A stretch of DNA of 64,000 bases. Origin: Escherichia coli (lineage in GTDB: Bacteria; Pseudomonadota; Gammaproteobacteria; Enterobacterales; Enterobacteriaceae). Below the pieces are notes generated by a model. That model was not told where the DNA came from. It searched no databases and saw nothing but the letters and a program-made list of their open reading frames with translations. The DNA is taken from the NCBI RefSeq assembly GCF_013315695.1, contig NZ_CP054353.1. One strand, given 5' to 3'. Both the position numbers and the translations under genes were made by a program. Below, one piece after another: positions 3,301-7,235 of the stretch (position 1 is its first letter; each line of letters begins with the position of its first letter).

Positions 3301-4293
3301 ATGAGTCAGAATACGCTGAAAGTTCATGATTTAAATGAAGATGCGGAATTTGATGAGAACGGAGTTGAGGTTTTTGACGAAAAGGCCTTAGTAGAAGAGG
3401 AACCCAGTGATAACGATTTGGCCGAAGAGGAACTGTTATCGCAGGGAGCCACACAGCGTGTGCTGGACGCGACTCAGCTTTACCTTGGTGAGATTGGTTA
3501 TTCACCACTGTTAACGGCCGAAGAAGAAGTTTATTTTGCGCGTCGCGCACTGCGTGGAGATGTTGCCTCTCGCCGCCGGATGATCGAGAGTAACTTGCGT
3601 CTGGTGGTAAAAATTGCCCGCCGTTATGGCAATCGTGGTCTGGCGTTGCTGGATCTTATCGAAGAGGGCAACCTGGGGCTGATCCGCGCGGTAGAGAAGT
3701 TTGACCCGGAACGTGGTTTCCGCTTCTCAACATACGCAACCTGGTGGATTCGCCAGACGATCGAACGGGCGATTATGAACCAAACCCGTACTATTCGTTT
3801 GCCGATTCACATCGTAAAGGAGCTGAACGTTTACCTGCGAACCGCACGCGAGTTGTCCCATAAACTGGACCATGAACCAAGTGCGGAAGAGATCGCAGAG
3901 CAACTGGATAAGCCAGTTGATGACGTCAGCCGTATGCTTCGTCTTAACGAGCGCATTACCTCGGTAGACACCCCGCTGGGTGGTGATTCCGAAAAAGCGT
4001 TGCTGGACATCCTGGCCGATGAAAAAGAGAACGGTCCGGAAGATACCACGCAAGATGACGATATGAAGCAGAGCATCGTCAAATGGCTGTTCGAGCTGAA
4101 CGCCAAACAGCGTGAAGTGCTGGCACGTCGATTCGGTTTGCTGGGGTACGAAGCGGCAACACTGGAAGATGTAGGTCGTGAAATTGGCCTCACCCGTGAA
4201 CGTGTTCGCCAGATTCAGGTTGAAGGCCTGCGCCGTTTGCGCGAAATCCTGCAAACGCAGGGGCTGAATATCGAAGCGCTGTTCCGCGAGTAA
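3301..4293 (+). CDS. rpoS: RNA polymerase sigma factor RpoS (sigma-38), intact
   Basis: 330 aa starting [17 protein letters not shown]; start taken at ATG 3301 rather than the upstream track start; codon 33 is GAG (Glu). Confidence 0.95.
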
Positions 4294-4310
4294 GTAAGCA
4301 TCTGTCATAA

Positions 4311-4344
4311 AGGCCAGTCTCTTATGAGGCTGGCCTTTTTCTTT
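4311..4344. terminator. Stem-loop plus T-run downstream of rpoS (likely bidirectional terminator)
   Basis: aggccagtctc..gaggctggcct stem followed by ttttt; lies between convergent rpoS and the MarR-type gene. Confidence 0.6.
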
Positions 4345-4413
4345 TGTATGGGGAGTTGGTGTGTTTCGTCGCCTGGATAAGACACGTCAGCGTCCCATCC
4401 GGCAATCAACATC

Positions 4414-4821
4414 CTATTTGCTCATCATCTTGCGCACCAGCTGCATAAACAGCTCCTGCTCTTCTCCACTCAAACGCCCCAAAAATTCCTCATCCACACT
4501 GTCGCCAATCGGTATCGCCGCAGCAAGTACCTTTTCTCCTTCGGCAGTCAGCCAGACAAAGCGTCGCCGCTTATCAGCGGCGTCATGTTCACGTCTGACT
4601 AAGCCACGATTTTCCATTCTTGCCAACATTTCTGCCAGCGTTGCTTTGGTGCTGACTGCTGCTTCTATCAGTGCCACCTGTTCGATACCAGGCTTATCAG
4701 CAATGGCGCGCATCACCGCGTACTGTGGTTTGGTCAGGTCAGGTAACTCGTGCTGCCAGCGGGCCGTATGCTGCTGAAAAAGCTGTCGTAACTGATGGAA
4801 CGCTTTATTTCGTAACGCCAT
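4414..4821 (-). CDS. MarR/SlyA-family transcriptional regulator
   Basis: 135 aa; winged-helix MarR-like sequence; divergent from the decarboxylase operon. Confidence 0.8.
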   Translation of the reverse strand: MALRNKAFHQLRQLFQQHTARWQHELPDLTKPQYAVMRAIADKPGIEQVALIEAAVSTKATLAEMLARMENRGLVRREHDAADKRRRFVWLTAEGEKVLAAAIPIGDSVDEEFLGRLSGEEQELFMQLVRKMMSK

Positions 4822-4936
4822 GTAAACTCCGGGCTAATTCTCTGTCGCTATCATAGCGGTTTTTCAGTGACGAAGAAGATGTTGTTACTTTTCAATCCTT
4901 GCCGCTGTGGAAATGAAGGAGTATGTTAATAATAAC

Positions 4937-4950
4937 GTTCGTATACGAAC
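4937..4950. promoter_or_regulatory. Perfect 14-bp palindrome gttcgtatacgaac, candidate operator
   Basis: Exact inverted repeat 18 bp upstream of the UbiX-like ATG, in the divergent intergenic region with the MarR gene. Confidence 0.4.
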
Positions 4951-4967
4951 AATTAAGAGAGTAAGCA

Positions 4968-5561
4968 ATGAAACTGATCGTCGGGATGACAGGGGCTACC
5001 GGTGCGCCTCTTGGTGTGGCATTACTGCAAGCGCTGCGGGAGATGCCGAATGTCGAGACTCATCTGGTGATGTCGACGTGGGCGAAAACCACCATTGAAC
5101 TGGAAACGCCTTACAGCGCTCGCGATGTTGCTGCCCTCGCAGACTTCAGCCATAACTCGGCGGATCAGGCGGCGACCATCTCCTCAGGTTCCTTTCGTAC
5201 CGACGGCATGATCGTTATTCCGTGCAGTATGAAAACGCTCGCCGGTATCCGTGCCGGTTACGCCGATGGCCTGGTAGGGCGCGCGGCGGACGTCGTGCTC
5301 AAAGAAGGCCGCAAACTGGTGCTGGTGCCGCGTGAAATGCCGCTTAGCACCATCCATCTCGAAAATATGCTCGCACTTTCGCGCATGGGCGTGGCGATGG
5401 TGCCGCCGATGCCTGCCTTTTATAACCATCCCGAAACGGTAGATGACATTGTCCAGCACGTGGTAGCCCGCGTGCTGGATCAATTTGGCCTCGAACATCC
5501 TCACGCCAGGCGCTGGCAAGGATTGTCGCAGACCCGGAATTTTTCTCAGGAGAATGAATAA
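4968..5561 (+). CDS. ecdB: UbiX/Pad1-family flavin prenyltransferase (decarboxylase subunit B)
   Basis: 197 aa; MKLIVGMTGATGAP flavoprotein motif typical of UbiX/Pad1; first gene of a three-gene operon; gene symbol recalled from O157-type annotations and not verified. Confidence 0.8.
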   Translation: MKLIVGMTGATGAPLGVALLQALREMPNVETHLVMSTWAKTTIELETPYSARDVAALADFSHNSADQAATISSGSFRTDGMIVIPCSMKTLAGIRAGYADGLVGRAADVVLKEGRKLVLVPREMPLSTIHLENMLALSRMGVAMVPPMPAFYNHPETVDDIVQHVVARVLDQFGLEHPHARRWQGLSQTRNFSQENE

Positions 5562-6988
5562 TGGCATTTGATGATTTACGCAGCTTTTTACAGGCGCTCG
5601 ACGACCATGGGCAATTGCTGAAAATCAGCGAAGAGGTGAACGCAGAACCGGATCTGGCAGCCGCAGCCAACGCCACCGGGCGTATCGGCGACGGCGCGCC
5701 AGCGCTGTGGTTTGATAATATTCGCGGCTTTACCGATGCCCGCGTGGCGATGAACACCATCGGTTCCTGGCAGAACCACGCGATTTCCCTCGGCCTGCCG
5801 CCAAATACCCCGGTTAAAAAACAGATCGATGAGTTTATCCGCCGCTGGGACAACTTCCCGATTGCCCCGGAACGCCGAGCCAATCCAGCCTGGGCGCAGA
5901 ACACCGTCGATGGAGACGAGATCAACCTGTTCGATATCCTGCCGCTGTTTCGTTTAAACGATGGCGATGGCGGTTTCTATCTCGACAAAGCGTGCGTGGT
6001 TTCCCGCGATCCGCTTGATCCGGATAACTTCGGCAAGCAGAACGTCGGTATCTACCGCATGGAAGTGAAGGGCAAACGTAAGCTCGGCCTGCAACCGGTG
6101 CCGATGCACGATATCGCCCTGCATCTGCATAAAGCGGAAGAGCGCGGTGAAGATCTGCCGATTGCGATCACCCTCGGTAACGATCCGATCATCACGCTGA
6201 TGGGGGCCACGCCGCTGAAATATGATCAGTCCGAGTACGAAATGGCAGGCGCGCTGCGTGAAAGCCCGTACCCGATCGCCACCGCCCCGCTGACTGGTTT
6301 TGATGTGCCGTGGGGTTCAGAAGTGATCCTCGAAGGGGTTATCGAAAGTCGTAAACGTGAGATCGAAGGGCCGTTCGGTGAGTTTACCGGCCACTACTCC
6401 GGTGGGCGCAACATGACCGTGGTGCGCATCGATAAAGTCTCTTACCGCACGAAACCGATTTTCGAATCGCTGTACCTCGGCATGCCGTGGACGGAAATCG
6501 ACTATCTGATGGGGCCAGCCACCTGCGTGCCGCTGTATCAGCAACTGAAAGCCGAGTTCCCGGAAGTGCAGGCGGTGAACGCCATGTACACCCACGGCCT
6601 GCTGGCGATTATCTCCACCAAAAAACGCTACGGTGGCTTTGCCCGCGCGGTGGGCCTGCGTGCGATGACCACGCCGCACGGTCTGGGCTATGTGAAGATG
6701 GTGATTATGGTCGATGAAGACGTTGATCCGTTCAACCTGCCGCAGGTGATGTGGGCGCTCTCCTCGAAAGTGAACCCGGCAGGGGATTTGGTGCAGTTGC
6801 CGAATATGTCCGTGCTGGAACTCGACCCAGGCTCAAGCCCGGCGGGGATCACCGACAAGCTGATTATCGACGCCACCACGCCTGTCGCCCCGGACAACCG
6901 TGGTCACTACAGTCAGCCGGTGGTGGATTTACCGGAAACCAAAGCCTGGGCTGAAAAACTGACCGCTATGCTGGCCGCACGTCAATAA
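5561..6988 (+). CDS. ecdC: UbiD-family (prenyl-FMN dependent) aromatic acid decarboxylase subunit C
   Basis: 475 aa; UbiD-like length and sequence; start overlaps the upstream stop (translational coupling). Confidence 0.8.
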   Translation: MAFDDLRSFLQALDDHGQLLKISEEVNAEPDLAAAANATGRIGDGAPALWFDNIRGFTDARVAMNTIGSWQNHAISLGLPPNTPVKKQIDEFIRRWDNFPIAPERRANPAWAQNTVDGDEINLFDILPLFRLNDGDGGFYLDKACVVSRDPLDPDNFGKQNVGIYRMEVKGKRKLGLQPVPMHDIALHLHKAEERGEDLPIAITLGNDPIITLMGATPLKYDQSEYEMAGALRESPYPIATAPLTGFDVPWGSEVILEGVIESRKREIEGPFGEFTGHYSGGRNMTVVRIDKVSYRTKPIFESLYLGMPWTEIDYLMGPATCVPLYQQLKAEFPEVQAVNAMYTHGLLAIISTKKRYGGFARAVGLRAMTTPHGLGYVKMVIMVDEDVDPFNLPQVMWALSSKVNPAGDLVQLPNMSVLELDPGSSPAGITDKLIIDATTPVAPDNRGHYSQPVVDLPETKAWAEKLTAMLAARQ

Positions 6989-6998
6989 GGAGAACAAG

Positions 6999-7235
6999 AT
7001 GATTTGTCCACGTTGTGCTGATGAACAGATTGAAGTGATGGCGAAATCGCCGGTAAAAGATGTCTGGACGGTCTACCAGTGCCAGCATTGCCTCTATACC
7101 TGGCGCGATACCGAACCGCTGCGCCGCACCAGCCGCGAACATTATCCCGAAGCGTTCCGCATGACGCAGAAAGATATTGATGACGCGCCGATGGTGCCGA
7201 GCATCCCGCCGCTGCTGGCGGAAGGTAAGCGCTAA
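6999..7235 (+). CDS. ecdD: small decarboxylase subunit D (zinc-ribbon protein)
   Basis: 78 aa; CPRC...CQHC pair of CxxC motifs; RBS aggagaacaag upstream; third gene of the operon. Confidence 0.7.
   Translation: MICPRCADEQIEVMAKSPVKDVWTVYQCQHCLYTWRDTEPLRRTSREHYPEAFRMTQKDIDDAPMVPSIPPLLAEGKR

Follow-up and report, generated by a model that had tools for sequence, protein, structure and literature searches.

HosA of Escherichia coli represses a decarboxylase operon as well as its own gene, and 4-hydroxybenzoic acid (4-HBA), a substrate of the pathway, relieves this repression, as related in two 2024 preprints that cite Roy & Ranjan 2016 (Biochemistry 55:1120, PubMed 26818787). According to the same preprints, transcription starts upstream of the palindromic HosA site, an arrangement that suggests steric blocking of RNA polymerase; the start-site, footprint and autoregulation data of the 2016 study are taken here from the papers that cite it. 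Cao et al. 2018 (PMC6261655) synthesised DNA carrying the "14-bp TFBS of HosA" from E. coli UMN026, with the site credited to Roy & Ranjan 2016, and reported binding of HosA to this 14-bp site by EMSA and biolayer interferometry (BLI), together with its release by 4-HBA. The gel shift was repeated independently by Liang et al. 2019 (PMC6694116), where release was found to be specific to p-hydroxybenzoate among analogues. Both of these later papers deal with biosensors, and the 14-bp HosA site already serves as a part in 4-hydroxybenzoate biosensors.

The stretch of DNA analysed in this study, 64,000 nucleotides in length and hereafter called the window, contains a 14-bp palindrome between a divergently transcribed regulator gene and a decarboxylase operon. 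We consider it very probable (roughly 93%) that this palindrome is the HosA operator of the B/C/D decarboxylase operon, acting as a block in the start region that is lifted by 4-HBA. The feature is an already known one, characterised in 2016, and its detection here is a re-discovery and not a new finding. What our survey adds is a broad set of conservation data defining the HosA recognition unit GTTCG-N4-CGAAC. The analysis covers the gene identities at the locus, the sequence identity of the palindrome to the published site, its conservation, and its position versus promoter-like hexamers.

The hosA-decarboxylase locus

The gene on one side of the palindrome (4414-4821, minus strand) encodes a protein of 135 aa that RefSeq annotates as a MarR-family wHTH regulator. 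It is identical at 132 of 134 residues (98.5%, E 2e-83) to the "Transcriptional regulator HosA" of PDB entry 8aga. No NCBIfam equivalog reaches its cut-off for this regulator (SlyA, 28 bits vs 120; MarR, 26.5 bits vs 240). Judged by its sequence, the MarR-family regulator beside the palindrome is HosA, a MarR-family repressor. On the other side, a B/C/D hydroxyarylic acid decarboxylase operon spans 4968-7235 on the plus strand, divergent from hosA. It comprises the genes for subunit B, a UbiX-type flavin prenyltransferase (4968-5561; NCBIfam VdcB, 311.5 bits vs a cut-off of 290, in agreement with RefSeq), for subunit C, of the UbiD family (5561-6988; VdcC, 790.8 bits vs 650), and for subunit D (6999-7235; VdcD, 121.2 bits vs 30), all three on the plus strand.

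A 3-kb query around the palindrome gave matches in E. coli chromosomes only. The gene order in a 100%-identical E. coli record is rpoS - hosA - B/C/D - ygbN ... pphB - mutS, and the module sits in the variable (polymorphic) rpoS-mutS region of E. coli. Of 5426 complete E. coli genomes, 2380 have this module. Just past the rpoS stop and before the 3' end of hosA, at 4309-4338, there is a strong hairpin of 13 pairs with a T-run behind it; this hairpin is most likely the rpoS terminator. The near-identical allele of E. coli strain 201609 (locus L088 of our sample) has a 1-nt insertion, and RefSeq calls its B-subunit gene a frameshifted pseudogene; the operator is intact in this strain.

The palindrome and the published HosA site

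Read directly from the window, positions 4937-4950 are GTTCGTATACGAAC, which is equal to its own reverse complement. The symmetry is limited to these 14 bp, which are flanked by a C at 4936 and an A at 4951. The first-pass annotation, made from the DNA letters and open reading frames, had described a perfect 14-bp inverted repeat located 18 bp upstream of a UbiX-like start codon, within a 146-bp region shared with a divergent MarR-family gene, and each element of this description is borne out. The repeat is exact; 17 nt lie between it and the ATG of the UbiX-type B-subunit gene at 4968, the last palindrome base being 18 nt from the A of the ATG; and the spacer shared by hosA and the B-subunit gene is 4822-4967, i.e. 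146 bp. Perfect palindromes of at least 14 bp number three in the 64-kb window, versus 6.2 expected from second-order Markov simulations, and the chance of finding one in a given 146-bp spacer is about 1.4%, a figure that is suggestive and not decisive. Since palindrome length alone is not rare, position and conservation carry the weight of the argument.

When the sequences are compared, the palindrome of the window is, base for base, the 14-bp HosA binding site already published. The oligonucleotides of PMC6261655 read TAATAAC-GTTCGTATACGAAC-AATTAAGAGA, with flanks as in the window, and alignment of the published 59-nt probe to the window shows identity over the palindrome and about 20 flanking bases. 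Mapped onto E. coli genomes, the published probe stands directly upstream of the B-subunit gene, and its 14-bp version finds a 100% match in a natural allele; oligo T_H and the natural allele L082 both contain GTTCGTATACGAAC. The window carries a different spacer allele from the published one, with a few substitutions between the -35 and the -10 and near the ribosome-binding site. It should be mentioned that Supplementary Table S1 of PMC6261655, as machine-read, shows for the HosA site a 15-nt string, GTTTCGTATACGAAC, in both strands. We rejected this 15-nt form as the product of a spurious extra T: it conflicts with the "14-bp" of the text, with base pairing (a non-palindrome would read the same on both strands) and with the natural alleles. 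A full-text search for the literal 14-mer returned no paper, the string being found only in the supplementary oligonucleotide table.

Position of the site relative to the promoters

A scan with a generic consensus called no sigma-70 promoter in 4250-5100, so the assignment of -35 and -10 elements rests on cross-genus conservation. The alignment shows two conserved blocks upstream of the site, CTTGCC (TTGCCG in the window) and GTAnnTT (TATGTT in the window), which are 17 bp apart. The predicted -35 hexamer TTGCCG lies at 4899-4904 on the plus strand, CTTG being conserved at about 90% or more, and it stands 17 bp upstream of the predicted -10 hexamer TATGTT at 4922-4927 on the same strand, in which T1, A2, T5 and T6 show 80-99% conservation among the genera. 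The predicted ribosome-binding site of the B-subunit gene, GAGAG at 4957-4961 (plus strand), aligns with a conserved TGAGGT of other genera and is located 6 nt before the ATG. Transcription is predicted to start at about 4933-4936, which would put the palindrome at about +2 to +17. This predicted start agrees with the published placement of the site downstream of the start. The first-pass annotation had placed the palindrome among MarR-type sites overlapping the promoter, and on this point it has to be corrected: 9 nt separate the predicted -10 from the start of the site, which is thus clear of both predicted hexamers.

On the hosA side, a search of the minus strand around the site gave no convincing -35/-10 pair that the palindrome could occlude. 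For hosA the best -10 candidate, TATGAT at 4855-4850, is about 90 bp from the palindrome, so that control of hosA through this one site would be hard to explain. Another inverted repeat, CGCTATCATAGCG at 4846-4858, has a 6+1+6 layout and precedes the start codon of hosA by 24 nt. Conservation of its core, CTATsATAG, amounts to 80-99% among the genera, and the repeat is -10-like on either strand (TATGAT/TATCAT); no convincing -35 partner was found for it. This element could serve as the -10 of hosA or be an operator in its own right.

Conservation across genera and E. coli alleles

Conservation of the palindrome across orthologous spacers had been proposed in the first-pass annotation as a check of the operator assignment. 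It was assessed in 80 loci with HosA orthologues (60-100% identity), taken from one-genome-per-species collections and representing about 20 genera: Escherichia, Salmonella, Citrobacter, Klebsiella, Enterobacter, Kluyvera, Kosakonia, Leclercia, Lelliottia, Phytobacter, Pseudocitrobacter, Atlantibacter, Rahnella and others. The palindrome passed this check, a HosA site being present in all 80 orthologous loci, with 26 exact copies, 53 with one mismatch and a single one with two mismatches. The B-subunit gene is divergent from hosA in 74 of the loci, and there the motif is found near the start of this gene (26 exact, 47 with one mismatch, one with two mismatches). Where the C subunit comes first in the operon (six loci), the motif is kept, together with hosA and the promoter, with one mismatch each. 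These six loci belong to a Pluralibacter MAG (L049), two Superficieibacter, a Cedecea and two Rahnella (L066, L067, L072, L077 and L081 in our sample); their UbiD-type C gene is divergent from hosA and has no adjoining UbiX-type B gene.

An alignment of 73 sequences (72 loci and the window) allows a closer definition of what is conserved. Positions 4938-4941 (TTCG) and 4946-4950 (CGAAC) are unchanged in all 73 sequences, position 4937 is a G in 70 of them, and nearly all variation within the site falls in the four central bases, 4942-4945. The 14 columns of the site are 95% identical to the window, compared with 48% in the remaining spacer columns, and they form the top-ranked 14-nt window of the spacer. 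A perfect palindrome is present in only 25 of the 73 sequences. It follows that the conserved unit is best described as GTTCG-N4-CGAAC, that is, 5-bp arms around a free centre, rather than as perfect symmetry.

The exact palindrome is also found in every one of seven E. coli allele classes sampled through representatives, whose identity over 181 nt extends from 100% to 89.6%. Operator variants had been suspected in the E. coli genomes that lack the exact 30-mer; this was discarded, as the sampled alleles differ in their flanks only (e.g. AATTTAG) and have the palindrome intact. The operator, GTTCG-TATA-CGAAC at 4937-4950 and without strand orientation, is thus documented by direct reading of the sequence, by identity with the published site, and by its presence in the orthologous loci and in each E. 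coli allele class sampled. An unusual spacer of 598 bp was found in Enterobacteriaceae bacterium LSJC7 (L070), in which an AT-rich insert of about 430 bp separates the conserved block next to hosA from the promoter of the operon. This insert has no evident gene (no ORF of more than 58 codons), and both conserved ends as well as the exact palindrome are retained.

A second HosA-like site in other genera

A second motif, GATCGTrTrCGAAC, was detected upstream of the main site in 35 of 75 spacers; centre to centre, the two are 56 bp apart in 21 loci and 57 bp apart in 14. Four nt separate the end of the second motif from the conserved -35. In locus L007 it occupies positions 84-97 of the spacer, and 34 further loci have it at the corresponding place (e.g. 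L010, L028, L038, L039, L047 and L048). Klebsiella, Enterobacter, Leclercia, Lelliottia, Pseudocitrobacter and some Kluyvera have it, and among the 75 spacers it is absent from Escherichia (including the window, at about 4881-4894), Salmonella, Citrobacter, Kosakonia, Atlantibacter and Rahnella. Among shuffled spacers, 0.7% contain an equally good match by chance. The Escherichia spacer, with 145-146 bp, is about 25 bp shorter than that of most other genera (about 170 bp). The missing stretch is located just on the hosA side of the second-site position, and the aligned Escherichia sequence matches 4 of the 14 second-site positions.

As a tentative proposal, which we hold to be somewhat more doubtful than probable, this second motif may be a real and undescribed operator, and HosA may act through two sites in the genera that possess it. 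If so, cooperative or looping repression would be possible, and the second site would be a natural candidate for autoregulation of hosA. The one-site arrangement of Escherichia, with its shorter spacer, would then represent a reduced version. To our knowledge, studies of HosA have been confined to Escherichia.

Alternative explanations for the palindrome

The palindrome could act mainly as RNA, the operon mRNA then beginning with a hairpin (5-bp stem, 4-nt loop) that would stabilise the transcript or modulate its translation. Such a role would fit with a site predicted to be transcribed (about +2 to +17), with natural variation that falls in the would-be loop and leaves the stem unchanged, and with the presence of the hairpin in both the minimum-energy and centroid folds. 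However, this hairpin is weak (-4.9 kcal/mol), and the 57-nt region around it is unremarkable (z = 0.43), 124 of 200 shuffled versions giving an equally good or better fold. Not a single compensatory change was observed in the arms among the 73 aligned sequences despite a spacer identity of 48%, which indicates that the constraint is sequence-specific and not structure-specific. Moreover, copies of the motif occur upstream of the -35 in other genera, where they would fall outside the operon mRNA, the element has no Rfam match, and direct protein-DNA binding has been published (PMC6261655, PMC6694116). We therefore rejected a structured 5'-UTR RNA element as the main function, on account of its folding no better than shuffles, the zero compensatory changes and the lack of an Rfam family, and consider this explanation very unlikely. 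The same palindrome is also listed by a terminator scan, in the form of a minus-strand stem of 6 pairs (4951-4936) with TTATTATTAA behind it, and could on this basis be an intrinsic terminator that stops antisense transcription into the spacer. Yet the stem is weak, with only three G-C pairs, its tail is broken by A residues, and no minus-strand gene ends there. The scan lists 4 sites in 850 bp versus 0.9 expected, and its specificity is accordingly low. We regard the hit as a by-product of a permissive scan, and a terminator function as next to inconceivable.

It could also be argued that the palindrome is a functionless chance occurrence, or that the regulator it serves is not HosA. The statistics of the window would allow for chance, as palindromes of this length are at or below the chance rate, and single-mismatch matches to GTTCGNNNNCGAAC elsewhere in the window are at the chance rate as well (five HosA-type sites including the true one, versus 2.8 expected). 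Against this stands the retention of the site, with invariant arms, at every one of the 80 loci from about 20 genera, within spacers whose remaining sequence is 48% identical. This conservation excludes pure chance. The strict co-occurrence of the motif with hosA, together with HosA-specific and ligand-reversible binding reported by independent groups (PMC6261655, PMC6694116), speaks against chance and another regulator alike, and we judge both very improbable. Secondary sources also report a HosA-dependent footprint over 4937-4950.

Proposed mechanism of repression

As far as MarR-family operators in general are concerned, inverted arms of 5 bp with a 4-bp gap were found in all of the HosA-encoding loci. 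For a HosA operator in particular, the match to the published 14-bp sequence, the divergent hosA gene, the B/C/D operon downstream and the location between rpoS and mutS were found together. The proposal of the first-pass annotation that the palindrome is an operator for the divergent MarR-family regulator is hence strengthened by the identity of this regulator with HosA (132/134), by the identity of the site with the published one and by its conservation in 80/80 loci. The response to phenolic acids that it had anticipated is matched by the published release of HosA by 4-HBA, as EMSA, BLI and ITC results are available for the identical 14-bp sequence (PMC6261655, PMC6694116). These binding data, obtained with an identical site and a 98.5% identical protein from another strain, would apply to the window by analogy.

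A HosA dimer would occupy the two arms, GTTCG and CGAAC, a short distance past the point where transcription of the operon begins, and the bound protein would block RNA polymerase at initiation or just after it, as a roadblock. Upon binding of 4-HBA, a substrate of the enzyme, HosA would leave the DNA and the operon would be transcribed. Binding, ligand release, repression and the location of the site downstream of the start are taken from the literature, in part through citing papers. The exact start site in the strain of the window and the roadblock mechanism are what we infer.

Comparison with related regulators

BsdA of Bacillus subtilis controls bsdBCD, which encodes a phenolic-acid decarboxylase of the same B/C/D type; this system is induced by its substrates and also has a divergent regulator gene. 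BsdA is, however, a LysR-type activator and not a MarR-type repressor, so that its operator logic is opposite to that of HosA. MarR with its operator marO and SlyA, from E. coli and Salmonella, belong to the same winged-helix family as the window regulator, to which they give weak NCBIfam and PDB matches. Their dimers bind short palindromes near promoters, as proposed for HosA, whereas their recognition sequences and ligands differ from those of HosA. There are two sites in marO, versus one in the Escherichia hosA spacer.

The next-best solved relative of the window regulator is PcaV of Streptomyces coelicolor (PDB 4fht/4g9y; E 7e-16), another member of the MarR family. It is a distant relative that serves a ring-cleavage operon (protocatechuate catabolism) and not decarboxylation, and its recognition sequence is different. 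PcaV is a repressor that is released by a hydroxybenzoate-type ligand and binds a palindrome between divergent genes. The closest system is the HosA operator of E. coli UMN026, which shares with the window the same 14-bp sequence, the immediate flanks (TAATAAC...AATTAAGAGA), the flanking genes, the rpoS-mutS region and a near-identical regulator. Nothing of substance differs between the two, the window having another allele of the spacer.
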